Source: Schmidtea nova (Eukaryota). Taken from it: a DNA stretch of 64,000 bases. The stretch is from positions 284,146,001 through 284,210,000 of the forward strand of contig CM097883.1 of NCBI GenBank assembly GCA_044892505.1. The letters are read 5' to 3'. Below are positions 11,536-62,470 of the stretch, in pieces (positions within the stretch are counted from its first letter, which is position 1; each line of letters begins with the position of its first letter). A model generated the notes under the pieces. That model did no database searches and was not told where the DNA came from. It was given only the letters and a program-made list of their open reading frames with translations. Position numbers and translations under genes: made by a program.

Positions 11536-11754
11536 TGTTATATGTGAATTAATAATATTAAAAATTCGTTTTAATATTATAAATTATAAAAATTGTTTGA
11601 ATATTGTTTTGTATAATATGGATTTTTGAATTGTGTAATTTACTGATTTATTATTATTATTTCCGAATTGTGTAATTGGCTTATTTAGTATTATTATTTC
11701 CGAATTGTGGTAATTTATTTATATAAATTGGTTAATTCATTTAGAGATATAACA
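11536..11754 (+). repeat. 5' LTR (219 bp)
   Basis: 8-bp terminal inverted repeat TGTTATAT/ATATAACA; direct repeat of 15316-15508 with 2 mismatches seen. Confidence 0.9.
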
Positions 11755-12761
11755 TGGCGTCACGAGCTGTTACGTTTGACAATTCTTTTGTAAAAAATTT
11801 ATTGGCACAAGAGATAGAGGGATCCCTATATCTATACACAAGGAAGTGTAAAAGGGATGTGAGGACACATCTCGAGAATATAACATCCTTTTTGGCGATG
11901 TTTGAGATGGAAGAGGCATACAAAGTTCGATTATTAAGAAGATATTTCGATCCAGAAATTTTATTCGAGGTGGAATCAAAAAGTACGTATGGAGAAGAAA
12001 ACAACACAGTAGAGTGGTACACAAAAACATTAACAGAAATGTTCCCAATAAAGGAGTCAAGAGCCAAGAAGGTTAAAATTTTCCTATCAACCAAACAGGA
12101 CGAAGGAGAGACGATAGTAGATTTCAGTAGACGTGGAAAAAGAACGACGAAAGACACAAAAGAAGATCGAAACAGAATAGAATTAATGATCTTTAGAGAA
12201 GGTTTAAAAAGTGAAATCATGAGAAAGACATTGAAAATATTGCGGCCCAAAACCATAGAAGAAGCTTTCGAACTAATAAAGGAAGAAAATGACCAGAAAG
12301 AAATAATTACAGATTACAGATTATCACAACTACGAGAAGACAGCTATAATGCATGGAGAGACGGGAAAGGAATTATTCAAGCGAAAGGAAACAACAACGG
12401 TAGACAAATGCGGGTAGATAAAAATGCCACATTGGAGTTACAAGAATTAAGAGAAGAGATTAAGAGACTTCAGGAAATAATAAAATATTTAAAAGAACCG
12501 AATAACCAAGATAGAAGTAGAAAAGAATTCCACAATGGACAACAAGTGGAATGTTACAATTGCAGCAAAACCGGCCATATTGCACGTTTCTGCGAAGAAA
12601 AGAAGAACGAAAGATGTTTCCGATGCAAGAAAACAGGACATATATCGAGCAATTGCCGAGAGTATCGAGGAAAAGTAACATCTTTTAATTGTAATAAAAA
12701 AGGACATATAAGTAGAGAATGCCCAAACAAGAGGGACGATTATAGAAGAGTACGACAATAA
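11754..12761 (+). CDS. gag: Gag with CCHC zinc knuckles
   Basis: CYNCSKTGHIARFC, CFRCKKTGHISSNC and a degenerate third knuckle SFNCNKKGHISREC. Confidence 0.9.
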   Translation: MASRAVTFDNSFVKNLLAQEIEGSLYLYTRKCKRDVRTHLENITSFLAMFEMEEAYKVRLLRRYFDPEILFEVESKSTYGEENNTVEWYTKTLTEMFPIKESRAKKVKIFLSTKQDEGETIVDFSRRGKRTTKDTKEDRNRIELMIFREGLKSEIMRKTLKILRPKTIEEAFELIKEENDQKEIITDYRLSQLREDSYNAWRDGKGIIQAKGNNNGRQMRVDKNATLELQELREEIKRLQEIIKYLKEPNNQDRSRKEFHNGQQVECYNCSKTGHIARFCEEKKNERCFRCKKTGHISSNCREYRGKVTSFNCNKKGHISRECPNKRDDYRRVRQ

Positions 12762-15935: not shown

Positions 15936-18900
15936 ATCAATTTCGATGAACCAATTCACGTGGCCTGCGAAAATGGTCACGAAGAGGTTGCTAAGTTTCT
16001 CATTGACAAAGGCGCTAATATTGAATCACATAGAAAAGTGAAATTAATTCTTGAATTTTCTCGGAATGATTTTTTCTTTAGTTTGGTTGGCGGCCAATAT
16101 TTTTTGCTTGTTTTAATTGCCATATTGGCGTGATAGAGCTGTTGATTAAAAACGGATGCGACATAAATGTACATGATCAGGTTTATTTTGAAATAGGAAA
16201 AAGAGTTAATAACGCATTTTCCCCCAGAATAAATGGCAGCCGATCCATTGGGCGTGCCGGTATGGATATTTGGATATTGTGAAATTGTTCATCAAAAACC
16301 GATGCAACATTGAAGCATGTGGACATGTAGTGAATTTCAATTTATAAAATTGCATAATTAACTTGCTGAAACATATTTTATTGTTAATTATTAATTTTAT
16401 TAGGATAACCTTCGGCCGATACACATCAGTTGCCGATACGGATTTACTGATATTGTGAAATTGTTGATTGAGAGCAAATGCAACACTGAAGTCCGCGATT
16501 CTGTAATTTACGGTTAACTATAAAGTAATGTTAACAAAAAAAATTAAATCTAGAATAAATGGCGGCCATTACACTGGGCGTGCTATAATGGCAATATTGA
16601 GGTGATTGAGTTACTTATATTAAGGAAGTGCACTTTGGACATGCTAAGTAAAGTAAAATTATTATTNNNNNNNNNNNNNNNNNNNNNNNNNNNNNNNNNN
16701 NNNNNNNNNNNNNNNNNNNNNNNNNNNNNNNNNNNNNNNNNNNNNNNNNNNNNNNNNNNNNNNNNNNNNNNNNNNNNNNNNNNNNNNNNNNNNNNNNNNN
16801 NNNNNNNNNNNNNNNNNNNNNNNNNNNNNNNNNNNNNNNNNNNNNNNNNNNNNNNNNNNNNNNNNNNNNNNNNNNNNNNNNNNNNNNNNNNNNNNNNNNN
16901 NNNNNNNNNNNNNNNNNNNNNNNNNNNNNNNNNNNNNNNNNNNNNNNNNNNNNNNNNNNNNNNNNNNNNNNNNNNNNNNNNNNNNNNNNNNNNNNNNNNN
17001 NNNNNNNNNNNNNNNNNNNNNNNNNNNNNNNNNNNNNNNNNNNNNNNNNNNAATTATTTTNNNNNNNNNNNNNNNNNNNNNNNNNNNNNNNNNNNNNNNN
17101 NNNNNNNNNNNNNNNNNNNNNNNNNNNNNNNNNNNNNNNNNNNNNNNNNNNNNNNNNNNNNNNNNNNNNNNNNNNNNNNNNNNNNNNNNNNNNNNNNNNN
17201 NNNNNNNACCTTTGATCTTTTTTTATTATTATTATCAATAATTCTCATAATGACTATAGATCAAATTTTTTTTTATAAACAAGTACACAATATTTCGGCA
17301 CAGCCTTTATCAAGTGTGTATTTCTATCGTTATATTTACTTAATCCTAAATAGTAGCCTTAATTATTTTTTTAATATTTTATAATGATTTTATTGGATGA
17401 AAAAATTTATTTTATTTTAATTTTTTTTGTGCGAATTGAATGTTGATGGACGGTTTGTATTTTTTTATGAAAAAAGTCTCGGAAGCTAATCTTTGTAATG
17501 AATTTTTGAATCCCTCTTGTAGAATCTGGCATTTTGTTTCTTCTATAGTTGGAGTTGTTTTATGTACTTTCTCCCAGTGTTCGTAATAATTACTGGTTTT
17601 GATTTTAGTATGTTCATTAAGTCGGGTGCGAAAAGTTCTATGTGTTTCTCCTATGTAAGTAGCGTCACATTTTTGACAAGAAAGTTTATATACTATATTT
17701 TTGGAAAAGCAAAAGCATCGGGTTGTGGAACGACAAAGACATTTATGTTTGGAGATGTTGGAAATTGGTGGCTTTCGGAGTTGTGATTTTAACGGTGCGG
17801 AGGTTATGAACGTTGGACGGATGTGGATAGGCAAATCTGTTTGATTAAAAATGTTGGTGATTTTGTTGGCTGTAGTGTCATTTAGGAAAGGTAATCTTAG
17901 ATATGTTGTGTGTTTGTTATTGTTATTGTGTTTCTGGCGTTTTCTATTGTTGCGTTTATTGTGGTATGGTTCGTTAAGGAAGTGTTTCTTTACAAAGTCT
18001 TCAGGGTATCCATTTTGGAGGAATCGTATTTTGAAGTTTTCTAATGTTTCTTGTATTTTGTTTGCGTCTGAACAGTTTCTTATGGCTCTTTTTCTTTCTC
18101 CTATTAGTAATGCGATTTTGCGTTGAAGTGGAACCTGGCTTTTCCATGGGAGGATATGACCGCTATGTAAACCTTTAGAATATAGCTCGGTGTTTGCATT
18201 TAGTGTATCTTGGCCTTTTGTGAAACTTACCATGGTATCTAAAAACGATATTTTACCTTCTGTGTTCGGTGTTTCAAAAGTAAATTGTATGTTGGTGTTA
18301 GTAGAATTTGCGTGTGATAGGATTTGATTGAGAGGGATTGTGGAGACTATGAAGATGTCGTCGATGTATCGTTTCCAGAAAAGTATTTTGTCCCCAAAAA
18401 AAGATATGATCTTAGATTCTATAAAGTTCATGTAGAAGATGGCTAAGATGGGAGAAAGGTTATTACCCATGGCTAATCCATGAATTTGTTTGAATGGTTT
18501 TTCTTTAATTATGACAGTATCTGAATTTATTGCTAATTTTAGAAGTTCTATAAAGTCTTGTTTAGTTAAGTCTGCGAGGTCAGTATTGGCTTTATGAGTT
18601 TCAAAGAAAGAAGCTGCGATATCGAAAATGTTATTCTCTCCGTGAAGAGGAATAGATCCGTAAAGATTGGAAACGTCAAGAGATCCCCAGAAGTACTGTT
18701 GTCCTGAGTTTAACGGAAGAGACGTATTTGTAATTTCGGAGACGAATTCAGTTGTGTTTTTAAGATGAGAAGGAACCAAAGGCAAAAGTGTTTTTAGAAT
18801 TTCTGAAAGAACTTTAGAAAGTGTTGTGGAAGGAGTGTCAACTGCAGATACAAGAGGTCTACCTTTTAAAGGACTTTTGTGATCTTTAGGTAACATAGTC

Positions 18901-20867
18901 ATATTACTAGGTAAAGGCTCACTGCAGTTGCATTTTAAAAGTAAATCTTTGATTTGAAGGTTAATTTGTTTATTTGCAAGTGTTGAAAGTTTCTTATTGT
19001 ATAAAATCTGAGTCGATGCAGGTAAGATTATTTTGTTTATCGGTTCATAGTTCGAGAGATGTTCTTCAAATAGAGTATTGTATTGTTCTGTGTCAAGAGC
19101 AATTAGTCGATTTGTTTTATCTGATGGAAGAATTGTGAAGTCTTTGGAATTCTTAATTTTCTTTATGTTTGAAGTGAAAGAATTTTGTGTTGAGCAATGT
19201 TTTTCAAGAAAGATAATTTGTTCTCTGACTAAAGTTTTGACTTTAGTTTCTAAACAGCTGAGTTTTTCTTCAAGTTCAGTCGAAAAGAGAGGCATATTTG
19301 GATATGTTCTACGATTTGGATCCAGAAGATGATTGTGCTTTTCAGCTAAACTTGAAGATTTGGTGGATGAAATTGGTTTTAGATGGTATCCTATTTGTCT
19401 TCTTAGGCTTACAACTCCGAAAGCCACCAATTTCCAACATCTCCAAACATAAATGTCTTTGTCGTTCCACAACCCGATGCTTTTGCTTTTCCAAAAATAT
19501 AGTATATAAACTTTCTTGTCAAAAATGTGACGCTACTTACATAGGAGAAACACATAGAACTTTTCGCACCCGACTTAATGAACATACTAAAATCAAAACC
19601 AGTAATTATTACGAACACTGGGAAAAAGTACATAAAACAACTCCATCTATAGAAGAAACAAAATGCCAGATCCTACAAGAGGGATTCAAAAATTCATTAC
19701 AAAGATTAGCTTCCGAGACTTTTTTCATAAAAAAATACAAACCGTCCATCAACATTCAATTCGCACAAAAAAAATTAAAATAAAATAAATTTTTTCATCC
19801 AATAAAATCATTATAAAATATTAAAAAAATAATTAAGGCTACTATTTAGGATTAAGTAAATATAACGATAGAAATACACACTTGATAAAGGCTGTGCCGA
19901 AATATTGTGTTATTGTTTATAAAAAAAAATTTTGATCTATAGTCNNNNNNNNNNNNNNNNNNNNNNNNNNNNNNNNNNNNNNNNNNNNNNNNNNNNNNNN
20001 NNNNNNNNNNNNNNNNNNNNNNNNNNNNNNNNNNNNNNNNNNNNNNNNNNNNNNNNNNNNNNNNNNNNNNNNNNNNNNNNNNNNNNNNNNNNNNNNNNNN
20101 NNNNNNNNNNNNNNNNNNNNNNNNNNNNNNNNNNNNNNNNNNNNNNNNNNNNNNNNNNNNNNNNNNNNNNNNNNNNNNNNNNNNNNNNNNNNNNNNNNNN
20201 NNNNNNNNNNNNNNNNNNNNNNNNNNNNNNNNNNNNNNNNNNNNNNNNNNNNNNNNNNNNNNNNNNNNNNNNNNNNNNNNNNNNNNNNNNNNNNNNNNNN
20301 NNNNNNNNNNNNNNNACTATAGATCAAATTTATTTTTATAAACAATAACACAATATTTCGGCACAGCCTTTATCAAGTGTGTATTTCTATCGTTATATTT
20401 ACTTAATCCTAAATAGTAGCCTTAATTATTATTATTATTATTTTTTTTTTTAAAAAAAAAAATAAATAATAATAATTAAGGCTACTATTTAGGATTAAGT
20501 AAATATAACGATAGAAATACACACTTGATAAAGGCTGTGCCGAAATATTGTGTTATTGTTTATAAAAATAAATTTGATCTATAGTCATTATGAGAATTAT
20601 TGATAATAATAAAAAAAGATCNNNNNNNNNNNNNNNNNNNNNNNNNNNNNNNNNNNNNNNNNNNNNNNNNNNNNNNNNNNNNNNNNNNNNNNNNNNNNNN
20701 NNNNNNNNNNNNNNNNNNNNNNNNNNNNNNNNNNNNNNNNNNNNNNNNNNNNNNNNNNNNNNNNNNNNNNNNNNNNNNNNNNNNNNNNNNNNNNNATAAA
20801 TATTGCAGAAAAGTACGGACATGTCAATGTTATGAAACTTGTTCAAAATGAATTGAAAAGTCAACTG
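15936..20867 (+). CDS. Ankyrin-repeat gene (one repeat per ~99-nt exon); Penelope element lies in an intron
   Basis: Exons: INFDEPIHVACENGHEEVAKFLIDKGANIESHRK; FGWRPIFFACFNCHIGVIELLIKNGCDINVHDQ; NKWQPIHWACRYGYLDIVKLFIKNRCNIEACGH; DNLRPIHISCRYGFTDIVKLLIESKCNTEVRDS; NKWRPLHWACYNGNIEVIELLILRKCTLDMLSK (ends 16652); later exon NIAEKYGHVNVMKLVQNELKSQL (~20797-20867). Phase-0 GT-AG introns of ~50 nt. Confidence 0.85.
17281..17322 (-). ncRNA. Minimal type I hammerhead-like ribozyme in the Penelope 3' UTR
   Basis: ACAC-TTGATAA-A-GGC TGT GCC-GAAA-TAT-T-GTGT: stem I ACAC/GTGT, U3:A8 core variant, 3-bp stem II, palindromic ATAT stem III. Confidence 0.65.
17412..19410 (-). CDS. Penelope RT-GIY-YIG polyprotein (open frame; residues of the track ORF from 19411-19472 derive from the inverted arm)
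   Basis: GRPLVS, SLDVSNLYGSIP, QIHGLAMGNNLSPILA, WKRYIDDIF, ISFLD; endonuclease IVYKLSCQKCDATYIGETHRTFRTRLNEH. Confidence 0.95.
19873..19914 (+). ncRNA. Hammerhead-like motif, copy in the inverted pseudo-LTR
   Basis: AATACACAC TTGATAA AGGCTGTGCC GAAA TATT GTGTTATT; stem I 8 bp with one bulge. Confidence 0.65.
20344..20385 (-). ncRNA. Hammerhead-like motif, left arm of palindrome
   Basis: Reverse complement of the 19873-19914 motif. Confidence 0.6.
20516..20557 (+). ncRNA. Hammerhead-like motif, right arm of palindrome
   Basis: Identical to 19873-19914. Confidence 0.6.
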
Positions 20868-24936: not shown

Positions 24937-27319
24937 CAGTGGTTCCCAAACTGTGTGCCGCGAGAGATTCTCAGGTGTCCCGTGAAAAAAAAATTCAATT
25001 TTTTTTGGGCGAAAAAATACGTTTTTTAGATGGTTTTATATTTTTTAAATTTTGCTGAAGCTTCTTTTTTAAGATTTCGCTGAAGTTTTTTTTAAACTTT
25101 TGCTGAATTTCTGAATATAAAGTTTTTCTAGTTTATTTTATTATTCTGTAAAATTTAATTTTGCAAAAAATATTGTGGAAATAATTTATAAGTAAGCAAT
25201 AAATTAATAATATCAACATATTTAAAGTTTAAATTGTGAAAATTTTGTATATTTAAGTAATTTATTATCTTAATAGCAATGGATAAATATTTGCATAAAC
25301 TTCCACCACAAAAGGAAAAAGGCTTTACAGAAAAGCAGATCACCAAGAGAAAGTACAAAGAGGAATACATTCAATATGGTTTTACAGCTCATGAACCAGA
25401 TGATTCTCAGCAGCCGCTTTGTTTCATATGTAATACAATGTTGTCCAACGAAGCTTTAGTTCCCAGTAAGTTGAAACGTCATCTAGAAACGAATCATCCA
25501 TCTCTGAAGGATAAGCCAAGAGAATATTTCGAGGCACTTGCAGTTCAGCAAAGTAAGCAAGCAAAAAAACTTTCTGGCTTTATGCAAATTCCCAAAAAAG
25601 GTTTGATGGCGAGCTTCAAAGTTGCTCATTTATTAGCGAAACGAAAAAAAGCGCACACAGAAGCTGAAACGGTAATTGCTCCTGCTTTAGCAATAATCGT
25701 TGAAACTATGCTAGGTCCTGAAGCAGCAGAGAAAGTTAAGAAAATTCCACTCTCGAATAATACAATTTGCCGTCGAATTGAAGAAATTTCAACAGATCTG
25801 GAAGATCAAATTAAAGATCAATTCAATGCCTGTGAAGCCGATGAACTTTCATTGTTATGGAGTCTTCAAGTCGATGAATCAACCGATATAAGCGGAAAGG
25901 CACATCTCTTGTCATTTATTCGATTTATCAGAGATTCACAATTCGTGAATGAATTTATTTACAAGGAGTTAAAATCGACAACAAAAGGAGAAGACATTTA
26001 TGAGCTGGTAAATGAAAATGTATTATCTTTCAACCTTAGCGTTTGCACAGATTAGCGTTGCACAGATTAGCGTTGCACAGTTAGCGTTTCCACAGACGGA
26101 TGCCCATCGATGCTGGGAACAAATAAAGGATTTGCTGCTTTCGTTCAAAAACAAAACTCAAGTGTGATTATCACTCACTGTATGATCCATAAAGAGGCAC
26201 TTGTATCAAAATCGCTACCCGATGATATGAAAACAGTTTTGGAGCAAGTTCTAAAAGTTGTGAATTTTATCAAAGTTCATCCTCTCCACACTCGACTTTT
26301 TGCACAACTTTGTGAAGCAATGGATTCGGATCACAAATGTTTACTTTTTCAAACAGAAGTTAGATGGCTCTCGAAAGGTAAAGTGCTAGCACGAATTATC
26401 TGTCTTAAAACCGAAGTTATTGCATTTTTGGATGAGTTGCGAGCCAAATTTCCATTCTCGTATCAGGATGAGATGCGGTGGCTTAAACTTCAGTTTATTG
26501 GTGATCTATTTGAAAAGTTAAATTCGCTCAATACCAGCCTTCAAGGACCTTCAGAAAATATAATCACATCGACGTCAAAATTAAAATCATTTGAGGAGAA
26601 ACTCATTTTATGGCAAAACAAAATATCCAAAGGAATTTATGAGTGCTTTAAAACAGTAAATCAGTCAAAATATAAGAAGAAAATCAAGAACGATGTCATG
26701 AATTATTTGAAGGAACTTCAATTAGCATTACAACAATATTTTCCATCTCTCTCTCTCTCTCGATGAATATGGTTGGATAATGAATCCTTTTGGAAATTTT
26801 TCTACAACAAATCTAAGTACTGAAGAGGAGGAGTAACTGATAGATTTTAAAAACGATGCATTCAGTAAGTCGACTTTCGCCGAAAACAAACTTGACGTTT
26901 TTTGGATCTCTATTAAAGCGACGTATCCTTTGATTTCTACAAAAGCAGTGAAAATTATTCTTCCATTTGCCTCTTCATGGTGTTGCGAATTTGGTTTTTG
27001 GCTTTGACCGAAATAAAGTCAAAGAAACGAGAGCGATTAATCAACATTGACAGTGAAATGAGAGCATGTTTATCAGTTTTGGAGCCACGTTTTGATGCAC
27101 TATGATTGAAAAAGCAAGCACATCATTGTCATTAAAGAAAGCTCATGTTCCTTTTTGTTAAATAAAATGAATTAATTTGCAATCTAATTTAGAAAAATTT
27201 TCCATTTAATTACCTAATATATGATTTTAAGGATAAAAAAATATAAAAACTATACTGTGCCGCGAGATTTTTTGAATTTTCAAAGTGTGCCGTGAGCCAA
27301 AAAAGTTTGGGAACCACTG
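24937..27319 (+). mobile_element. hAT transposon (Buster/Charlie group), both ends present
   Basis: TIR CAGTGGTTCCCAAAC / GTTTGGGAACCACTG; perfect 8-bp TSD CTCTAGGG (24929-24936, 27320-27327). Confidence 0.97.
25279..27135 (+). pseudogene. hAT transposase, disrupted
   Basis: BED-type finger PLCFICNTMLSNEALVPSKLKRHLETNHP; VDESTD, CTDG, HCMIH, EVRWLSKG, SWCCEFGF; broken by a 4x ~15-bp repeat at 26036-26096 and a (CT)n slip at ~26750. Confidence 0.93.
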
Positions 27320-29825: not shown

Positions 29826-30794
29826 TTATTTAATCCTAAAACGTTTGCCGCCAATTGTTACTGTATTTTGACTCTTGATCTTTTTTGTTTGTTTTACTTT
29901 CGTATCACTATTGTTGGCGCTTGCACTGCCTAAAGGCACTTTGCACAATTTTGCCCATTGGTTGAGCAGTCTTATAGCAATTGTTTTATTTTCCGACGTT
30001 TCATCTGGATGCTTACAAAGGTGATAAACCGCTTCATAGATATTGCTATCCTTAATATCGACCGATGAAATAATATTGAACTCTAGGAGACCTTGCAACA
30101 AAATCGTCCTTATATCTATTGCGGGCAGCCGGTTACCTTTCAATGGTTTTAACCATCCGGCCATTGCTGATAGAAATTCGCATTCAATTAATAAGCTTTT
30201 CACGTTTTTCTCACTAGATTTCCTAAGCATATCTTCTACTTGTTGCAAAACTTCTAGTTGTTCCTCGCATGGCTCGGTTTTTAAATTTAATTTTTCGTCA
30301 GTTTCACGTGCTAATTGCATTTTGTTTATCAATTGAAAAATTGGGATTTTTTTCCGGTCTTTGTCAATAATTTTGTTTGCGTCCGAGTGGATTCTTTTTT
30401 TGGATTTTTTTGCTATTTTATTTCTGACATTCTCAAAGGCGGTTAAAATATTATTGTTTTTATTGTCGTTATCGGGACCGGATTTTGTTGTTTTATTTCG
30501 ATTGGGTTTCAATATTACTTTGGCATTGTTTTCATTTTGCTTTATTGATGATTTTCTAGCAATTGTTTTAATTGGGGATTTTTTTATACTTTCTAAACTG
30601 CTTTCCTCGTCAGAATCACCAAAAAGGTCTTTGCAAATCTGCCGCGATGAATCGTTTTTGGAGCTGGAATTTGTCGGTTTTGATGGCAAGTTTACAGTGA
30701 AATCAATTTCATAATCAGAATCAGAATCACCTAGCAAGTCTTTGACTAGTTTCTTGGAAGCTTTTTTATTGTTTAAATTGTTTGTTGTTTTCAT
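29826..30794 (-). CDS. IWS1: IWS1/Spn1-like elongation factor (TFIIS N-terminal-like domain), intronless, copy 1
   Basis: 322 aa open; FLSAMAGWLKPLKGNRLPAIDIRTILLQGL...IKDSNIYEAVYHLCKHPDETSENKTIAIRLLNQW resembles the IWS1 domain (LS.M.EWL.PLPD.SLP...IR..LL...SGIG.AV..L.KHP.E...NK..A.KL..EW). Confidence 0.8.
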   Translation of the reverse strand: MKTTNNLNNKKASKKLVKDLLGDSDSDYEIDFTVNLPSKPTNSSSKNDSSRQICKDLFGDSDEESSLESIKKSPIKTIARKSSIKQNENNAKVILKPNRNKTTKSGPDNDNKNNNILTAFENVRNKIAKKSKKRIHSDANKIIDKDRKKIPIFQLINKMQLARETDEKLNLKTEPCEEQLEVLQQVEDMLRKSSEKNVKSLLIECEFLSAMAGWLKPLKGNRLPAIDIRTILLQGLLEFNIISSVDIKDSNIYEAVYHLCKHPDETSENKTIAIRLLNQWAKLCKVPLGSASANNSDTKVKQTKKIKSQNTVTIGGKRFRIK

Positions 30795-31779
30795 TTTTAT
30801 TATTTTATTATTGAAACTTTTAAATAGAAATGAAATATATATTTATATAATTTAATTAAATTTTGATTGGTCAAAATAATAATTTTAATTAATTTAAAAT
30901 GTTTAAAATCTAAAATGATATCAAATAATAATATCAATTATTGGTAGTCACATTATTCTTATTTATTTTTACGTATAATTATGGCTGACATCTTGGTTCA
31001 AACATATTCCATTTTTTTCGTTTCAAGGTTTGTTAGTAAATACTAAAAAACAATTTTTAGAAGAAAATTTACAGATAAATGTTTATGGTTAGAATAATTT
31101 TATTGAAGCTTTCTCCTAAAAATATCCTCAATGACCCCCACAGCTGGCCTTCTATTTGTGAAAGTGACATTTTGAAATGCTTGTGAACACATACGATTTA
31201 CTCAAATATAATTTCATTACTCTTTTCTCCTTTTCTCCTTTTTATTTTTGATTTTCTTTTTAAGATTTCGTTTATTAATTTTAATTTATTAATAATAAAT
31301 AACTCTATTTTAACAGTAGATTAAAAATGATAATCACATGGCATAGTCGAATTGTTTATATACAAAATTGTAGATTCTCTAAAAATTATAGATAGAAAGT
31401 AGCATTTTTCAATTTTCCGTGGTTTTGGAAAAACTTGCAGTTTTAGAGTTAAACCTGGTGGGGTAGTAAAAATATTAATGAAATAATGATTTTACTAACT
31501 TCTTGATTGGTTTAAGGGAGAATCTATAAATTAAGATTATTCTAAACAAAAAAAATAATAAAATTATATGCCTCAAACCCTTTAAACCTAAAAAACAAAA
31601 GATTTAAAGTCAATAGTGATCCAGTGAATAAAAAATACTCGGGAGCTAATAAATAAGAAGTAAAAGAATTGAAATGAAAAAATCATTTCTTGATGTCAAT
31701 TCCTTTCGTCAAAATGCTCGAGAAATGTTTTTAAAATATCTATTTTTCGTTGTATAACCATGCATAGATTGGAGACCAC

Positions 31780-33178: not shown

Positions 33179-33243
<65 letters not shown>

Positions 33244-33368
33244 ATCAATAATTCTCATAATGACTATAGATCAAATTTTGTTTATAAAAAAAATTTGATC
33301 TATAGTCATTATGAGAATTATTGATAATAATAATAAAAAAAGATCAAAGGTGAAAAAAGATAATTATG

Positions 33369-33430
<62 letters not shown>
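33177..33430. repeat. (TA)n microsatellite containing a 92-bp fold-back of the Penelope 3' terminus
   Basis: 40-bp perfect arms 33239-33278 / 33291-33330 matching the terminal sequence at 17209-17270 and 20570-20601; (TA)n on both sides. Confidence 0.88.
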
Positions 33431-33435
<5 letters not shown>

Positions 33436-33766
33436 AAATAGAAATATTAGAAAATAAATGTATATTTATTTAACAAAGATTAAGAAGCACTGATATCAAA
33501 AAATCATGTTCAATTAAAAAAATAATTTATTTATTAAATACATATTTCGTAAAAACAAACCCCAATCCAAAATTATATTCTGCTCAAGTATTTCGAGAAA
33601 TTACTTCTCATCATCAAGTGCTATTCAGTCAACCATTCCAATATAAATCAAATAAATCAAGTTGAAAACAAATTATTCATAATTTAAAAAAATGTAATAC
33701 AAAATTCCAAAATAATCAAAATTTTTGAAACGATAAAATTATTTTTCAATTTAAATAAATTAATCT

Positions 33767-34213: not shown

Positions 34214-34228
34214 GTAACACATAAACCA

Positions 34229-34423
34229 ACCTATATCCTTATACGATTCAACAATAAAATACGCCAAATCATTGTCACCTCTGACTTATACTCAGACATC
34301 GCCACATCGCTCTCCATTGATAAGAGTTCCTTCTACCTATCGCGCAACGGTTGTTTAATCTCGACTTCCACCATATTCCAAGCTAATTCAATATTAGACG
34401 TTAACTTCCGAATTCACGGAGGT
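34229..34423 (+). CDS. Diverged ubiquitin-like domain at the Gag N-terminus (ends RIHGG)
   Basis: TYILIRFNNKIRQIIV...DIATSLSIDKSSFYLSRNGCLI...QANSILDVNFRIHGG parallels ubiquitin secondary-structure spacing and the [15 protein letters not shown] tail; no in-frame ATG found upstream. Confidence 0.7.
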
Positions 34424-36090
34424 GTCCGACCTCCTACAGAATCGATTTCTTCAGCCGTCTCACGTCCCATACTGTTTTTCCTAAATCAAGACGGTACACC
34501 TTCCTCGTGGTTTCGCATTTTGGAAGCCCGCACGTCCTCTTTCCAGAAATCACGAGCCGATTACTTCGTTGACAGTTTACCGCTGAGTTGATAGCTTAGC
34601 TTGCTCAGAAAATAGCAGATGCCCTTGATTCTGATAGCCCATACGAGAACTTAAAAGAACTCATAGTAGCCAAATACACCGCATCGCAAACCCAAGCCCT
34701 ACAAAAATTATTAGCCCCACAACGCTACTCAGGCCAACAACCGAGCCTCTGTTTGGCTGAGATCATTCGCTCGAACGATTCGGCCTTACCTGGACTCTCC
34801 AAAAATTTACACCTGTTGACACACCAATTCCTTTCTGCACTGCCCTACCACCTACAAACCTCGCTTGTATTGGTCGACTCCAAATACCCATATCATCTAG
34901 CAAAAATAGCCGACCGCATTTACGCACTTCAACCCCATAAACCGCGCGCTGATAATTACAAACCATCACCACCATCTCCCATTGTCAACGCAACACATAC
35001 ACCTGAAAACCACTACGCTCGCAACGTCGAAAGATATCCATACACCGCCATTACATCTAGTACAACATCCGAATCGTCTACCGGCAGCACGCACTCAAAA
35101 CGTACAACCCAGTAACAACACATCACTAATTTGCTATTTCCACAGCCGATTTAGAAAACATGCACAGAAATGCTGCATTGGTTGGACTTCCGAATTCCAC
35201 AATTCTCATAACCCCGTCATTACAATCTGCATCCACCACCACCTGTTCAAGAACGAAGCCAAATTGTGCATCGAAGGATGTACATGGCACACCAGCAATC
35301 ACTACCATGCAAAAAACTAATCGAGTCATCGGATATTTCTGGACGCTCCGATGACTTCCTACCAGTGAACACTCTTCAGCACAGCAAACCACGTCCAACG
35401 CACACAATATCAACTCAACCAGCAAGCACCATCTCAGAAACAACCGCTACCCTCTCCACAGTACTATTCTCTCACACAACACCATCACCAATACCAATAC
35501 AAGCATCAAAACTAGAACAAGAACCAACCAGCACACCTTGCACAACATTAGCAACAACACCAACAACGACATCACCCACCACACCACACAGAGCACCAAC
35601 CGCATCACGACCAGTAGCAACATTCACAACATCATTAGAAACCCCACTAACAATACCAGAAGCCCTGCTCACCTTTCCCGACAACGAAACCCGCACAGAC
35701 TACACACACATTCTACCACAGCCACCACAAACCACATCTCCGTCTCCACTGTCACCAACTACACCACCTTTAAACAGAATCCCCGGAAATTTCACCATCA
35801 ACGTCCAACTGTTCGAAGAATACGGTCAACCCAAACAATGCACAAAAACATTCCTCGCAGATACAGACTCGTCATATTTAATTTTACCCACCACGTTCAC
35901 CACAGACACACCCTGCTCATCCTCTTCCACAGCCGCGAACGGTACACACATAATGCTATCCGGTCCAAAAACAATCGAATTTCGCCTCCCAGGTTTTTTT
36001 ACTCCGATCCTTGAATCCTGTTTTCGCATTTCCCATACGCTCCGCGTACTTCGGCGGGGGCTATTGTAGTGCCTCCGTCATATTCATATT
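34229..36090 (+). mobile_element. Mag-type gypsy copy 1: Ubl-Gag-protease, RT/RH/INT deleted, PPT and start of 3' LTR
   Basis: SSWFRILEA...DSLP...YENLKELIV...QPSL Gag core; CYFH..F..HAQKC fingers; FLADTDSS protease; GGCGGGGG then TGTAGTG at 36065. Confidence 0.8.
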
Positions 36091-36460
36091 ATAAATATTT
36101 ATATATAAATTAAATTAAATATATATCAAAAGATATATATATATAAGATAAAATCATATATAAAGAATTATAAAAAGTTTTTGTTTAAATCACGAAAAAC
36201 GGCTCTCTTTTTGGAAACTGAATATCAAGCAAGAAAAGAAAATCCAGTAAACGCAACATCAATTTCTGAAGAACGATAATTCAAGCAACGACTTCCAACA
36301 AACACCACATCAATTTCTGAAGCACAATTATTCAAAGAAGCAACAACTATTGAATCGAATAAATGTTCAATTATTTTCTAGTTTTATTTTGTTTTGTTTC
36401 TGTAGTTAATTATTATTGGTTTATTTTTTGTATTTGTTACTGAAAATTATTTTTATTTAG

Positions 36461-40846: not shown

Positions 40847-40920
40847 AAGAGTTTGATGTTGACAAAATTTTCGTTTTCTCTTTGTTTTTCGTTTCCTTTT
40901 ATTTAATTAATAATAACTAA

Positions 40921-41651
40921 TGTTTCAGCCAAAGTTTGCCTGAGCAAACTTTGGCTATTTTTGTGTGTGTATGTTAAAAATGTCTTATAGGCCTGTGTGC
41001 GCATTTTTACCGCTTGGTGTTCATAATTTATGTTGTTCACGCGTCTGTGTGCGCGATTAATTGGTAATTTTTGGATTATTGAGAATTAGATAGGTAATTG
41101 ATTTTTAGATTTAATATTTTAGAATTTTAGGGTTTTCTGTGAATTATTTTGTGTTGTTTAAATACTCCAATTGAGTATTTTAGATTTTGGATTTTTCAGT
41201 TTCGAATTAGAATTTTGATTAATGTGGAATTTCGATTATGTTGGAATCAATTTGGAATTTTTGTAATTATGGTTTCGAAAATGGAATTCTCCTCGTGTAA
41301 TGTTCAGAATTGATGCTCAATGCTTAATGTCAGAAGATTTACCATGCTTCGTAGCACAAAGCAGTTCTCATACTACTGTACGAAGAGATAATTTGCTAGA
41401 TGATACCATTAGCCAGTCGCAGCGTTATGGTCTCTTCGATTATGGTCTCTTTGAAATGTATCCTGAATCAAGACTCTGCTGGTTTAACAAAATGATATTT
41501 GATGACGATTTAACCCAGTTTACTGTGATCGGTAGATTGTTTGGTCTGGCAATTTACAATAACTTTATGATTGATCCTCAATCTCCTCTTGTAATGTTCA
41601 AAACATTGGCCAATAAAATCATTGAAAGGGCGTTACGTTTTATCACAAACA
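40921..41651 (+). repeat. 5' LTR (731 bp) containing a HECT fragment and AATAAA at 41612
   Basis: Direct repeat of 45303-46033; starts TGTTTCAG, ends ACAAACA. Confidence 0.95.
41300..41610 (+). pseudogene. HECT E3 ligase (HERC3/4-like) N-lobe fragment inside the LTR
   Basis: VRRDNLLDD, YGLFEMYPESRLCWFN, FTVIGRLFGLAIYNNFMIDPQSPLVMFKTL vs HERC-type VRR..IV.D, YGMF.Y..DSRLIWF, F.LIG..CGLAIYN...VD..FPLALYKKL; internal deletion, no catalytic C-lobe. Confidence 0.8.
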
Positions 41652-41655
41652 TTTC

Positions 41656-41673
41656 TGGTAGCAGAGCGTGGTT
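41656..41673 (+). promoter_or_regulatory. Primer-binding site complementary to initiator tRNA-Met
   Basis: TGGTAGCAGAGCGTGGTT 4 nt after the LTR; animal tRNAi-Met ends ...CTCTGCTACCA. Confidence 0.85.
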
Positions 41674-42004
41674 CCCATCGGGGGACCACGTGTTCTCTGG
41701 ATCATTCGGAATATGGTTCTGGCTATCCAGCCAGAACAAGGTATTTAAATGCAATATTTTTGAATTTTTATTTGAAGTTTTTTGTATATATGAATGTAGA
41801 ATTTTTTATGGTTTATTTGAATTTTTTTGGGTTGAAGCATTTCCCCCTCTGCCCTTTGCCATCTCTTGCGGTGGGTTGGGTCCATTAGGGGACCAGAAAA
41901 GATGCTGCTATGGGCCCCAGCATTCTTTTCAATTGGGGGACGAAATAGCCAGGAGAACAGATGGATTTAGGAGATCTGTTCCTTTAATTTGAAAAAATAA
42001 AACG

Positions 42005-46033
<4,029 letters not shown>

Positions 46034-47163: not shown

Positions 47164-47666
47164 TTTAAATGGGGGCTAAAATGAAAGAAATCGAATCAAA
47201 GGAGCAATCTATTAGAAAAGAGTTAATTTACATCAGGAAATATCATGAAAATTCAGATTTTCATTGAATTGTTTGTGATAACTTTGAATAGATATCATTT
47301 AAATTAAGAGTGAATATTTACTAGAATCAATTTGAACATTTAATAAGAAGTATCAAGTATTTTAATTAGAAATCAATAAGTTTAACTAATTACTAGGATT
47401 TTTATAATTATTTTTAATAATTATAAATAGTANNNNNNNNNNNNNNNNNNNNNNNNNNNNNNNNNNNNNNNNNNNNNNNNNNNNNNNNNNNNNNNNNNNN
47501 NNNNNNNNNNNNNNNNNNNNNNNNNNNNNNNNNNNNNNNNNNNNNNNNNNNNNNNNNNNNNNNNNNNNNNNNNNNNNNNNTATTCATAGATATAAAAAGA
47601 GTTGTTTAAATAAACACGAAGAGAGAAGCAGTTTAAAAAAAGCACAAGAAGAAACCATTTAAATAA

Positions 47667-47939
47667 ATGTTGTATTTTATCGTATTGACTTTTGTTTTAG
47701 GGGTATCGGCAACGAAAGTTGCAACCCCTATAATTGGTGTCAGAAACGACAATTTTTTACGCGATCCTATTCTCAGTTCAGTATGTCACGAACATAATAT
47801 GGTCAATCTTATTCATCCACAGCCGCAACAAGTCGTTTACAGCAGCATTATTCACAATCTCGTAGTGTCCTTGCCTCAACATCATTCTACTCAACCACAA
47901 TTTACTCACATTTCATCGGACAATCAGAATCATTCTTAA
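47667..47939 (+). CDS. Possible secreted protein (signal-peptide-like start), perhaps pseudogenised
   Basis: MLYFIVLTFVLGVSA; H/Q/P-rich; similar composition continues in frame past the stop. Confidence 0.3.
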   Translation: MLYFIVLTFVLGVSATKVATPIIGVRNDNFLRDPILSSVCHEHNMVNLIHPQPQQVVYSSIIHNLVVSLPQHHSTQPQFTHISSDNQNHS

Positions 47940-48442
47940 TTATTATCGGCTCCATTTCCCGTTGGCAGAAGTAACACTTCAGCCCATATCATAAACCCAG
48001 TTGACGTGGCACATCCCAATCATAATCAGAACCAACAATACACAATTAGTCGACAACTTACCGTAGCAATGTCGATATTCGCTGTTGCTACTCCGTGCTC
48101 ATTGCTATCAGCTTCTCCAACAACTGCCGACGCTTTGCACTCATTCCACCAACAACATTAAATATCTCAACCAAATGACAATAGGTTCACCAATCCAAAT
48201 GATATAGCAATAAGTATCTTTATTATATTTCTATAAATAAAATTTTATTCATATTTATAATAATATTATATATAATATTTAATAAATATTGTTTGATAAA
48301 TATTATATTATTTAAAATTACCCTTCACGAATTCTCTATCCCGCCTCTCTTCCGCCCTTTAATTACAAACAGCACCCATAATCCTAACCTAGATCCAACA
48401 CACGATAACGATTCTTTCGCCAAAACCACACCGATACTACCA

Positions 48443-50830
48443 GCCTATATCCTCACGCGTTTTAATAACAGAATACGGGAAATCGCCGTTACTTCCGATC
48501 TACGCACAGACATTGCCACATCGCTTCGCATTGACAAGACCTCATTCTACGTGTCGTGCAATGGTTTTTTAGTCTCCTCTTCTACCCAGCTGCAGTCAAA
48601 TTCAATCTTCGACATCAACTGTCGCATCCTAGGAGACGGTAGAATCACAACAGCGCCATCTTCCTCATCCGGATTCCGCTCCATTCTGTTTTTTCTGGAC
48701 CCGGACGGTACACCTTCTTCGCGGTTTCGGATCTTTGAAGCGCGTACGTCTTTCTCTCCACGGTCACGAGCAGATTACCTCCTCGACAGTTTACCTGCCG
48801 AATTGATAGCTGAACTAGCCCCAAAAATTGCTGATGCTCTTGACGCAGGAAATCAATACGAAAGGCTAAATATTCTAATTGCAACCAAATACATTTCTTC
48901 ACAGGCCCAAGCTCTGAAAAAACTTTTGGCGGCACAGATTTACTCAGGTCAACAACCTAGTCTCTTTTTGGGAGAGATAGTTCATTTAAACGATGCGGCA
49001 GTACCCGTCTTTCTAAAAACGCACCTCTATTCGATACTAAAATCATCTCAACCAAATGCACGCCCCAAAAGAAACAACAAGTCGAATTCTTTTCCCCTTC
49101 TGACTTGTTTTTTTCACAATAAATTCTCTTCCGAAGCAAGAACATGTCATATCGGATGTTCATGAGCAAACTCTCCTTCCACTTTGAGAATCATTCCTAT
49201 TTTCATCTATCACAACATTTTCGGTTTACACGCACACAATTACCTTACAGGTTGCACTTTTGTAAACCGTCCCTCAAATAAATTACACGACAAAAATTAT
49301 TCAAATTGTCCACAAAAAGCTAACTTCGCTGTTTGTCCACCCTGGATTTTCAGGTGGCGTCCTTGCGATCAACAATATCTTCACTGTTGAAGCAAACGTG
49401 GATTCCAGCTCATCTATTCATTTTCTCGTCGATTCCGGCTCGTCATTTTCAATCCTTTCGACAACTTTCACACCAGATTTCAAATCTCTGTTCACTGTTT
49501 TAGCCGCCAACAGCACACCGATTCAATTTTTGGGAACAAAAATATTTTCCATTCACAATACCAACATTTGACTCAACTTTTACTCACATTTTCCACATAG
49601 CGGACACGATCCACCGAATACTAGGCTCCGATTTCTTATGCAAACAATCCATCATGGTAGATTGCAAAAACCGCAAGTTGTTCACTCTAAAGCAAGACAT
49701 CAACTATACATCAAAAAATTTCATCGTTGAATGTAGCATCAGTCTCGACCCAGGCATCTCCAATGACACAACTAAACACGATTCAACAGATTTCCACGAT
49801 AGAAAGCGCTCAACCCACATTGGACATCGGCCAATCAGCCAAACCAGATACAATGCATGACATGATCAAATTAATTACTAACAAATATCCAAATCTCATC
49901 ACTAAATCAGCTACCATACCATCCTTTACCCTGTCGACTCACTATATTCACACATTACCATGCATACGACAACACAATCTAGCTAGACCTCTCTTTTCCA
50001 CCAAACTCGACGCAGTCAAAGCTGATTTCGTTATTCTAGAAAACGCAGGCATTATACGTCGTTCATCTTCACCATGTGCTTCACCAATACACGTATTCAA
50101 GAAGAAGATGGATCATTTAGACCTTGCGGAGATTATCGACAACTCAATCAAGTAACAGTACCCGACGCATACCCAATTCCACTCATCAAAGATGTAATAA
50201 CACGCTTTTATCAATCTACCGTGTTTTCAACTATAGACCTCTCGAAAGCATAACACCAATTTCCCATCCATATCGACGACGTCCCAAAACAGCCGTCACT
50301 ACACAATTCGGAAATTTTGAATACATGTTCATGTCTTTTGATATCAGAAATGCAGCTCAGTCCTTACAACGTTTCACGGATACAATTTTTCGAGACGTTC
50401 CTCACACTTTCGCATACCTCGATGATATCATCATTGCGTCACCTGATTGAGGCAGCCACGCGGACGATTTATACACGGTCCTTAACATATGGAAATGCCT
50501 TAATTTACAGATAAACGTGAATAAATGTATTTTTTTCAAGAATGTGTCAGATTTCTCGGTCATATACTTTCATCTACTGGTTGTGAACGTCTACCCCAAA
50601 AGACTCGACGTAATCGACAGTTTTCCTCTGCCAACCACCTTGACACAACTACGTAGCTTTTTAGGCATCGACAATTTCTGCCACATATTCATTAAAAACG
50701 CATCTCACATAACGGTACCCCTTTCAACACTGAACACAGGATAAAAGAATTCTGTTATCAATTGGTCCGACACAACACGTGACTCATTCAACAAAGTCAA
50801 AGACACTCTAGCCAAGATCAACACTCTTCA
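48443..50830 (+). mobile_element. Mag-type gypsy copy 2: Ubl-Gag-protease-RT-start of RNase H, degenerate and 3'-truncated
   Basis: Ubl 48443-48637 (ends RILGD-G); Gag core; CFFHNKF..EARTC..GC; FLVDSGSS; GIIRRSSSPCASPIH, CGDYRQLN, FAYLDDIII, LRSFLGI. Confidence 0.88.
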
Positions 50831-57607: not shown

Positions 57608-58579
57608 TTATTTTATCTTAAAACGTTTGCCACCAATTGTTACTGTATTTTGATTTTTGCTCTTTTTTGTCTGTTTTACCCTAGGACTATCACTATTGTT
57701 GGCGCTTGCACTGCCTAAAGGCACTTTGCACAATTTTGCCCATTGGTTGAGCAGTCTTATAGCAATTGTTTTATTTTCCGACGTTTCATCTGGATGCTTA
57801 CAAAGGTGATAAACCGCTTCATATATATTGCTATCCTTAATGTCGACCGATGAAATAATATTGAATTCTAGGAGACCTTGCAACAAAATCGTCCTTATAT
57901 CTATTGCGGGCAGCCGGTTACCTTTCAATGGTTTTAACCATCCGGCCATTGCTGATAGAAATTCGCATTCAATTAATAAGCTTTTCACGTTTTTCTCACT
58001 AGATTTCCTAAGCATATCTTCTACTTGTTGCAAAACTTCTAGTTGTTCCTCGCAAGGCTCGGTTTTTAAATTTAATTTTTCGTCAGTTTCGCGCGCTGAT
58101 TGCATTTTGTTTATCAACTGAAAAATTGGGATTTTTTTCCGGTCTTTGTCAATATTTTTGTTTGCGTCCGATTGGATTCTTTTTTTCGATTTTTTTGCTA
58201 TTTTATTTCTGACATTCTCAAAGGCGGTTAAAATATTTTTGTTTTCATTGTCATTATCGGGACCGGATTTTGTTGTTTTATTTCGATTGGGTTTTAATAT
58301 TACTTTGGCATTGTTTTCATTTTGCTTTATTGATGATTTTCTAGCAACTGTTTTAATTGGGGATTTTTTTATACTTTCTAAACTGCTTTCCTCGTCAGAA
58401 TCACCAAAAAGGTCTTTGCAAATCTGCCGTGATGAATCGTTTTTGGAGCTGGAATTTGTCAGTTTTGATGGCAAGTTTACAGTGAAATCAATTTCATAAT
58501 CAGAATCAGAATCACCTAGCAAGTCTTTGACTAGTTTCTTGGAAGCTTTTTTATTGTTTAAATTGTTTGTTGTTTTCAT
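57608..58579 (-). CDS. IWS1: IWS1-like protein, intronless, copy 2 (323 aa)
   Basis: Same domain as copy 1; open frame. Confidence 0.8.
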   Translation of the reverse strand: MKTTNNLNNKKASKKLVKDLLGDSDSDYEIDFTVNLPSKLTNSSSKNDSSRQICKDLFGDSDEESSLESIKKSPIKTVARKSSIKQNENNAKVILKPNRNKTTKSGPDNDNENKNILTAFENVRNKIAKKSKKRIQSDANKNIDKDRKKIPIFQLINKMQSARETDEKLNLKTEPCEEQLEVLQQVEDMLRKSSEKNVKSLLIECEFLSAMAGWLKPLKGNRLPAIDIRTILLQGLLEFNIISSVDIKDSNIYEAVYHLCKHPDETSENKTIAIRLLNQWAKLCKVPLGSASANNSDSPRVKQTKKSKNQNTVTIGGKRFKIK

Positions 58580-61498: not shown

Positions 61499-62470
61499 TT
61501 ATTTTATCTTAAAACGTTTGCCACCAATTGTTACTGTATTTTGATTTTTGCTCTTTTTTGTCTGTTTTACCCTAGGACTATCACTATTGTTGGCGCTTGC
61601 ACTGCCTAAAGGCACTTTGCACAATTTTGCCCATTGGTTGAGCAGTCTTATAGCAATTGTTTTATTTTCCGACGTTTCATCTGGATGCTTACAAAGGTGA
61701 TAAACCGCTTCATATATATTGCTATCCTTAATGTCGACCGATGAAATAATATTGAATTCTAGGAGACCTTGCAACAAAATCGTCCTTATATCTATTGCGG
61801 GCAGCCGGTTACCTTTCAATGGTTTTAACCATCCGGCCATTGCTGATAGAAATTCGCATTCAATTAATAAGCTTTTCACGTTTTTCTCACTAGATTTCCT
61901 AAGCATATCTTCTACTTGTTGCAAAACTTCTAGTTGTTCCTCGCAAGGCTCGGTTTTTAAATTTAATTTTTCGTCAGTTTCGCGCGCTGATTGCATTTTG
62001 TTTATCAACTGAAAAATTGGGATTTTTTTCCGGTCTTTGTCAATATTTTTGTTTGCGTCCGATTGGATTCTTTTTTTCGATTTTTTTGCTATTTTATTTC
62101 TGACATTCTCAAAGGCGGTTAAAATATTTTTGTTTTCATTGTCATTATCGGGACCGGATTTTGTTGTTTTATTTCGATTGGGTTTTAATATTACTTTGGC
62201 ATTGTTTTCATTTTGCTTTATTGATGATTTTCTAGCAACTGTTTTAATTGGGGATTTTTTTATACTTTCTAAACTGCTTTCCTCGTCAGAATCACCAAAA
62301 AGGTCTTTGCAAATCTGCCGTGATGAATCGTTTTTGGAGCTGGAATTTGTCAGTTTTGATGGCAAGTTTACAGTGAAATCAATTTCATAATCAGAATCAG
62401 AATCACCTAGCAAGTCTTTGACTAGTTTCTTGGAAGCTTTTTTATTGTTTAAATTGTTTGTTGTTTTCAT
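61499..62470 (-). CDS. IWS1: IWS1-like protein, intronless, copy 3 (323 aa, same protein as copy 2)
   Basis: Track translation identical to copy 2. Confidence 0.8.
   Translation of the reverse strand: MKTTNNLNNKKASKKLVKDLLGDSDSDYEIDFTVNLPSKLTNSSSKNDSSRQICKDLFGDSDEESSLESIKKSPIKTVARKSSIKQNENNAKVILKPNRNKTTKSGPDNDNENKNILTAFENVRNKIAKKSKKRIQSDANKNIDKDRKKIPIFQLINKMQSARETDEKLNLKTEPCEEQLEVLQQVEDMLRKSSEKNVKSLLIECEFLSAMAGWLKPLKGNRLPAIDIRTILLQGLLEFNIISSVDIKDSNIYEAVYHLCKHPDETSENKTIAIRLLNQWAKLCKVPLGSASANNSDSPRVKQTKKSKNQNTVTIGGKRFKIK

Follow-up and report, generated by a model that had tools for sequence, protein, structure and literature searches.

The locus described here raises the question of why the Gag of a Gypsy retrotransposon should carry a ubiquitin-like (Ubl) domain ending in a diglycine. 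Retroelement Gags usually start at their own Met and are processed by the protease of the element. The window, i.e., the whole stretch of 64,000 nucleotides analysed, comes from an AT-rich eukaryote assembly of 1.25 Gb. It contains two 65-codon stretches, at 34229-34423 (copy A) and 48443-48637 (copy B), both in frame with a Gag capsid core, exactly as the initial annotation had placed them. Its residue counts are also correct: 43 of the 65 residues are identical between the copies, and 22 of these 43 use different codons. At the DNA level, 136 of 195 nucleotides are identical and the identity is concentrated at codon positions 1 and 2 (50, 54, and 32 of 65 for positions 1, 2, and 3), giving a pairwise dN/dS of 0.149. 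We propose that this 65-residue predicted Ubl, terminated by R-x-x-G-G, is a site cut by a host deubiquitinase (DUB) that frees Gag with a clean N-terminus, a reading to which we give a probability of roughly 0.6.

Table 1. Features of copies A and B and of the BEL/Pao element in the window, with the loci of the further Ubl-bearing Gypsy families
Feature	Position or loci	Strand	Basis or remark
Copy A: Ubl domain, subfamily A, end RIHGG, next residue Val	34229..34423	+	sequence; predicted fold from family alignment
Copy A: Gag linker and capsid core (DUF7041), frameshift near 34590	34424..35115	+	capsid fold matches dArc1, PEG10
Copy A: two tandem CX2HX9CX3C-type zinc knuckles, first one damaged	35132..35281	+	sequence
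Copy A: degenerate protease remnant	35790..36010	+	sequence
Copy A: polypurine tract (PPT) and 3' LTR (LTR 36064-36409)	36052..36409	+	5' LTR and leader lost
BEL/Pao: 5' LTR, 733 nt, 100% identical to 3' LTR, HECT-ligase fragment inside	40919..41651	+	
BEL/Pao: captured Hsp70 fragment, in frame ahead of ubiquitin	42181..42813	+	
BEL/Pao: near-canonical ubiquitin, end LRLRGG, next residue Asn	42841..43068	+	PF00240 E 6e-28
BEL/Pao: Gag domain DUF1759	43450..43875	+	E 3e-11
BEL/Pao: 3' LTR	45301..46033	+	LTR pair
Copy B: 5' LTR end (beside N run) and primer-binding site (PBS) TGGTGTCAG at 47735	47581..47745	+	
Copy B: leader, variable insert and AT-rich hydrophobic stretch	47735..48442	+	stops and frameshift here
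Copy B: Ubl domain, subfamily B, end RILGD (family: RILGG), next residue Gly	48443..48637	+	Sde2_N_Ubi_vert E 0.0028
Copy B: Gag capsid core, truncated	48638..49031	+	
Decayed protease/RT/RNase H remnant downstream of copy B	49390..50800	+	
Family C, SUMO-like Ubl, end LLKGG	L102, L112, L182-L196		
Family D, Ubl end RLRGG	L116, L162-L181		
Family E, Ubl end RLRGG	L197-L201		
Family G, Ubl end RARGG	L264, L268-L270, L280		Met directly before Ubl; full-length gag-pol

Both window copies are damaged (Table 1). Copy A lacks RT, RH, and IN and is an internally deleted element; the nearest relatives of the remnant downstream of copy B (86-91% DNA identity) are, wherever their start of Gag is preserved, family G elements. 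Neither Ubl is preceded by an in-frame ATG, as had been observed, because copy A has lost its 5' end (similarity to its own family starts at 34225, 4 nt ahead of the Ubl) and the leader of copy B contains stops and a frameshift; in less damaged subfamily B copies, this leader is open and in frame. The LTRs, PBS, PPT, and pol order PR-RT-RH-IN of the wider family are those of a Ty3/Gypsy LTR retrotransposon. The label “Mag-type” given to the copies is unconfirmed and doubtful, the knuckle being CX2HX9CX3C and not CCHC. This knuckle may be the CHCC motif of the CsRN1 clade. With other Ty3/Gypsy elements bearing a DUF7041 Gag, possibly a CsRN1/Kabuki/Boudicca clade by this motif, the elements share the capsid, PR-RT-RH-IN, LTRs, PBS, and PPT. 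The link of the knuckle to CsRN1 finds no confirmation in PMC8220671 or PMC2238898.

Several other features populate the window. A 706-codon RT-like ORF (17412-19532, minus strand) is flanked by 522-nt inverted repeats (region 17263-20774) and adjoined by a 416-nt near-perfect palindrome (19922-20337), with more nested inverted repeats. Three 99%-identical ORFs of 338-339 codons (29826-30842, 57608-58627, and 61499-62518; minus strand) encode a TFIIS/Med26-like domain (E 4e-6); two of them lie within a 3.9-kb tandem repeat with satellite-like units, and this ORF is possibly the cargo of a mobile element. Inverted repeats surround (TA)n runs (33179-33440 and 17208-17273), 66 nt matching 17208-17273 at 100% in reverse orientation. 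A CCHC-knuckle ORF (11745-12761, plus strand; E 3e-14) and a BED/C2H2 zinc-finger ORF pair (25261-26766, plus strand) probably represent other transposons.

The domain is predicted to adopt the β-grasp fold of ubiquitin. The AF2 model from a 19-row alignment exhibits pLDDT values of 74-88 across the domain and the order strand-strand-helix-strand-strand; this alignment (A4) includes seven relatives from outside the genome. A first model from 18 close copies only, with a pLDDT of 52.7, no helix, and no meaningful Foldseek match, was superseded by this deeper alignment. In the PDB, every row listed by Foldseek is a ubiquitin, ISG15, or Ubl-containing chain, the best with a probability of 1.00 and an E-value of 1.3e-3 that misses 0.001; in the viral library, the matches are ubiquitin-family proteins and BVDV polyproteins. 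The top VIA match is the Dsk2 UBL (Z 8.0, within the “common” range of the tool; rmsd 1.8 over 63 residues), BAT3 is also among the top rows, and the capsid part of the model matches dArc1 and PEG10. These scores are modest and agree with each other.

In terms of sequence, the A/B domain appears closest to the Ubl of Sde2, the match being limited to the C-terminal 35-38 residues. Human SDE2 (PDB) matches the domain profile with an E-value of 0.0013 over 35 residues, and hhalign gives a probability of 95.9 over 38 columns with the SDE2 Ubl tail of this genome, as compared to 8.7% with ubiquitin, to which the Gypsy Ubl is ~20% identical. The Pfam matches of the Gypsy domains to Ubl families all stay below the cut-off: PF22781 (Sde2 N-terminal Ubl) is found in 8 of 18 members (best E 0.0007, ~19 bits against a cut-off of 27), and A2 members have no Pfam match. 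Sde2 is absent from the VIA list, which is not counted against this affinity. In the ESM Atlas, which provides leads only, the nearest clusters are ThiS/SAMP2 (0.88-0.90) for the A/B domain and ubiquitin (0.91, 152 shared features) for the family D domain. A protein search for the Ubl alone versus longer proteins, a weak test, gave 0 of 57 candidates. Descent from Sde2 is a lead and no result, because the match covers the C-terminal half only and other Ubl members lean toward SUMO or ubiquitin. The KGG and the SDE2 domain do not follow the Gypsy Ubl; a Gag linker and DUF7041 stand there instead, and the host SDE2 gene is a separate locus. To note, the host SDE2 ORF (L101:937-1926, minus strand) harbors only the C-terminal half of its Ubl (~35 residues, from Met to GG-KGG); no upstream exon for the N-terminal half was found within 10 kb, and the Ubl of the host is possibly truncated, unless an intron that escaped recognition divides it.

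Used as queries, copies A and B each yielded 150 matches of 150 scored, hence at least 150 (from 3951 and 3717 candidates), and both therefore come from large dispersed families; a further query uncovered a third subfamily, A2. Selection was analyzed on the 81 distinct copies of subfamilies A and B that remained after duplicates among 100 loci had been removed, and on 29 of 30 A2 loci, L234 being left out for an indel inside the domain. The purifying selection on the protein that the initial annotation had suspected is borne out: column-wise dN/dS is 0.143 (A-B), 0.173 (A-A2), and 0.062 (B-A2, where dS nears saturation), at dS values above 1.2, with Fisher p-values of 2e-9 to 2e-12 and 1e-7. 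Variants found in a single copy are near neutral (pN/pS 0.65 in A, 1.04 in B). Taken together, the low dN/dS between subfamilies and the neutral singletons indicate that selection acts on the replicating lineages, and that inserted copies, including both window ones, decay.

The diglycine follows the same pattern. It is kept in 93 of 110 copies (36/39 in A, 34/42 in B, 23/29 in A2), with synonymous differences between codons; the changes in copies without it are scattered and roughly as frequent as those in the other columns, and in dead copies the GG codons decay like all others. The GD of copy B is a private change, found in 1 subfamily B copy of 42. GG is also present in 12 of 15 family C loci (L184 is out of register) and 17 of 20 in family D. 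Outside the genome, 7 of 7 relatives have GG, 13-23 residues ahead of the capsid motif and followed by A, T, or S, never by Pro; JGI loci L283 and L284 add two more cases. The residue following GG in these lineages is V, G, A, T, or S, with a Y in the decayed locus L202 as one exception. GG and an Arg four residues before the domain end are kept, while the remainder has diverged to ~31-37% identity.

The Ubl-Gag fusion extends well beyond subfamilies A and B: the first reading overlooked further Ubl-bearing Gypsy families (Table 1) as well as a BEL/Pao element with a true ubiquitin 8 kb away. Among the best 30 DUF7041 loci of the genome, 13 belong to families C and D. The other 17, like the external protein P0007, differ in being ordinary Gags that start at a Met ~10-20 residues before the capsid, without Ubl. 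A single-sequence search outside the genome returned three Ubl-bearing relatives and one ordinary Gag; a profile search returned seven relatives, all with GG before the capsid, one of them called from inside the domain. Their capsid identities of 28-56% suggest other hosts, and the taxonomic range given here is a minimum. Scanning JGI data with P0011 produced five loci, three of which (L282-L284) cover gag; in these three, the frame is already open ahead of the PBS and continues into Ubl-GG-Gag, and protease and RT are also present. In a capsid tree of 30 rows, all 20 Ubl rows lie on one side of a branch (support 62/80, one change), and A, B, and A2 group with six outside proteins at 98/96. 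A single origin of the Gypsy Ubl is the simplest explanation of this tree, and several independent captures within Gypsy are the less simple one, given this weakly supported (62/80) grouping. The position of the Ubl and its GG are fixed across lineages whose capsids are 23-57% identical. In family G, a GTAAGT occurs just after the PBS and the LTRs exhibit open Q-rich or S/T-rich frames.

The anatomy of the Gypsy elements was drawn from forty 10-kb stretches, in which LTR pairs, the PBS TGGTGTCAG, and a purine tract were found. Many elements are 3-3.5 kb long and lack pol, and others possess RT-RH-IN in Gypsy order: downstream of Ubl-Gag, these follow in order in L065, L067, L078, and L085, and PR/RT with RH or IN in L093 and L100. 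No clear target-site duplication was seen, element ends being resolved in 2 of 12 elements. L086 contains, 2.9 kb downstream of the Ubl, a nested Gypsy element that itself lacks a Ubl and whose gag-pol frame is open over 1370 codons.

The Ubl is indeed fused to the Gypsy Gag, as initially proposed, but in subfamilies A and B it is internal and not N-terminal. PBS and Ubl are spaced by 0.5-0.95 kb, and a leader of 150-340 codons, beginning in the LTR, precedes the domain. A PBS lies within 1.5 kb of the Ubl in 90 of 111 copies examined; among these 90, the leader is interrupted by stops in 77 and free of them all the way from PBS to Ubl in 13, of which 11 share a register, with at least four different inserts represented. 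The PBS-to-Ubl distance modulo 3 displays a weak bias (38/30/22). The least damaged copies have an open frame that extends from within the LTR across the PBS and past host fragments into Ubl-GG-Gag. The inserts include a Sin3 PAH fragment (E 1.8e-10), an Ig V-set piece (E 0.001), and Q/N-rich sequence, together with a SAPS-gene fragment in family C (E 1.6e-6). They are followed by an AT-rich stretch with a hydrophobic translation, stop-free solely in the Ubl frame (stop-shuffle P 0.003-0.03 per copy, for copies that had been picked as open). This stretch could be an intron instead of coding: by eye, its first two letters are GT in each of A, A2, B, and G, the candidate AG is not kept in B or A2, and splicing would break the frame in B.

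The BEL/Pao element of the window (40919-46033) is young and has no pol; its ORF runs from the Hsp70 fragment through ubiquitin, preceded by the tail of another ubiquitin unit, to the DUF1759 Gag. DUF1759 and the LTR pair assign it to BEL/Pao, and knuckles, protease, RT, and RNase H are recognizable by eye in L243, L245, and L246. The family provides at least 150 matches at 98-100% identity (loci including L132-L161 and L243-L256). In longer copies, a single frame passes from the LTR and PBS through calmodulin, HECT ligase, glutathione reductase, and Hsp70 pieces into ubiquitin and Gag, and in some it continues into pol. LRLRGG is kept in 30 of 30 copies. Over 25-30 loci, pN/pS is 1.03 for Hsp70, 0.17-0.23 for Gag, and 0.02 for ubiquitin (18 synonymous variants, 1 non-synonymous), the last value being biased because loci were ranked by similarity to the ubiquitin region. 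The pattern in Hsp70 is that of passenger cargo whose frame is merely kept open, in contrast to that of the ubiquitin. A search of sequencing runs for the BEL element listed no RNA run containing it. This family appears to have reached the Ubl-Gag design independently of Gypsy. Its LTR itself holds coding fragments, and in L246-L248 a BEL-ubiquitin copy follows ~10 kb of pure trinucleotide repeat in frame, creating a spurious 4916-codon ORF.

From this layout we infer the following course of events. Translation would begin in the LTR or just after. The leader, made of LTR-encoded peptide, captured host mRNA pieces, and the hydrophobic stretch, would be a passenger that need only stay in frame. 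A host USP/UCH protease would cut after GG, as USP5 does with Sde2, and the freed Gag would assemble normally. Under the N-end rule, V, G, A, T, and S fall in the stabilizing class, and the small residue exposed by the cut would thus be stable. A cassette cut before Gag would explain the tolerance of host-sequence capture ahead of gag. A Met stands immediately ahead of the Ubl only in sister family G (5 loci), and removal of a leader is therefore not needed everywhere. Among the uses put forward at first, the cleavable leader is the likeliest; a late-domain/ESCRT role and a conjugatable modifier lack specific support.

Four other explanations have been weighed, here in falling order of probability. 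The Ubl might be cut off and its gain lie in co-translational chaperoning or higher Gag expression, as in ubiquitin-ribosomal protein fusions, leader and cargo being incidental. The diglycine and fold evidence fit this equally, and the Met of the five family G loci and P0004, called from a Met within the first strand of the Ubl, speak for it. However, the Ubl stands behind long in-frame leaders in A, B, C, D, the JGI loci, and the BEL family, L284 has no Met from PBS to GG, and an internal Ubl could hardly chaperone a nascent N-terminus in the usual way; we regard this explanation as unlikely. Somewhat less probable still is a Ubl that stays on Gag as an interaction module, docking to ESCRT or the proteasome or substituting for a late domain. 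Artificial Ub-Gag fusions rescue late domains, which counts in its favor. Internal uncleaved Ubls are common, such domains (Dsk2, BAT3) are among the top VIA rows, and Burro polyproteins contain an internal SUMO-like domain (PMC6431247). A docking surface does not account for GG and the Arg being kept while the remainder diverges, nor for a following residue that varies and is never Pro, and no envelope ORF was noticed on inspection of LTR-to-LTR copies of 3-6 kb.

The freed Ubl, with its leader, might instead be the functional product, as a conjugatable modifier or as a decoy that distracts host DUBs or ubiquitin receptors, and it could bring along host fragments (Sin3 PAH, HECT) with a dominant-negative effect. 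The near-canonical BEL ubiquitin, with its low pN/pS on loci ranked by that region, and the origin of several cargo pieces in chromatin or ubiquitin genes (Sin3, HECT E3) fit this idea, to which we give a slightly lower chance than to docking: the cargo is fragmentary, differs between sub-lineages, and includes unrelated housekeeping genes (calmodulin, glutathione reductase, Hsp70), the sole piece tested, Hsp70, is neutral, and at ~20% identity to ubiquitin, E1 recognition of the Gypsy Ubl is unlikely. Finally, the domain could be an unselected captured host fragment, from SDE2 for example, hitchhiking like other cargo. Capture of host pieces by these elements is clear, variants confined to one copy are neutral, and the domain resembles host SDE2; yet the dN/dS of 0.06-0.17 at dS above 1.2, and a position and GG fixed across lineages and in other samples, largely refute this and leave it very improbable. 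The DUB-cut processing site remains the preferred reading.

Known systems offer partial parallels. In cytopathic pestiviruses (BVDV CP1, CP Rit), host ubiquitin is inserted in the viral polyprotein with extra host residues before it; such insertions are processing signals for NS3, at which host hydrolases cut and thereby create a separate N-terminus for the protein that follows (PMC8310069), a cleavage that is here proposed. The pestivirus insertions are sporadic, recent, and placed before NS3 of an RNA virus, whereas the present domain is fixed, diverged, and under purifying selection before Gag across a retrotransposon clade. The SDE2 precursor, which like Ub-eL40, Ub-eS31, and FUBI-eS30 carries a Ubl ending in GG, is the best sequence match for A/B and is cut at GG by a DUB (PMC5131917), namely USP5 (PMC13572447). 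These are cellular genes with an N-terminal Ubl, and the residue exposed by the cut is Lys in SDE2 but would be V, G, A, T, or S in these Gags. Burro/GYPSM1, the giant gypsy of planarians, possesses a Ubi2/SUMO-like domain (PF11976) inside its polyprotein; it differs in lying downstream of Gag, between MATH and BCL-2 domains of a 4,873-aa ORF, and the relevant text of PMC6431247 mentions neither a diglycine nor a cleavage role. In LTR-mediated retrocopies (Tan et al. 2016; maize Bs1), template switching brings host mRNA fragments to lie between the LTRs, in many cases in frame (PMC5131818). Internal ORFs are replaced by those captures, whereas the present ones accumulate upstream of an intact gag that is itself preceded by a ubiquitin-type cassette. 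The initial annotation was aware of no description of such a domain for this group, and this agrees with the literature searched, although prior annotation in Repbase, Dfam, or subscription journals is possible: no natural Ubl-Gag fusion was found, and the word “ubiquitin” is absent from the main text of PMC6338049, PMC5408684, PMC13524379, PMC2774666, PMC8220671, PMC2238898, and PMC5131818. Nor did this literature yield a description of a host-DUB step in Gag maturation for retrotransposons.

In its widest form, the proposal is that LTR retrotransposons of two superfamilies independently took up a ubiquitin-type, host-DUB-cut cassette as a Gag N-terminal processing site, which would relieve the LTR and 5' region of coding constraint and let the elements gather host mRNA fragments in frame, and which in Gypsy would define an old clade present in several host species; we hold this at even odds. 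If true, Gag maturation in these elements would depend on a host deubiquitinase, and a mechanism would be at hand for the acquisition of in-frame host cargo ahead of gag without harm to capsid assembly. Ubiquitin fusion, familiar from cellular precursors and from chance events in pestiviruses, would here exist in a natural and lasting form, and its diverged domains (Sde2-like, SUMO-like, ubiquitin-like, and near-canonical) would constitute a natural panel for DUB specificity.
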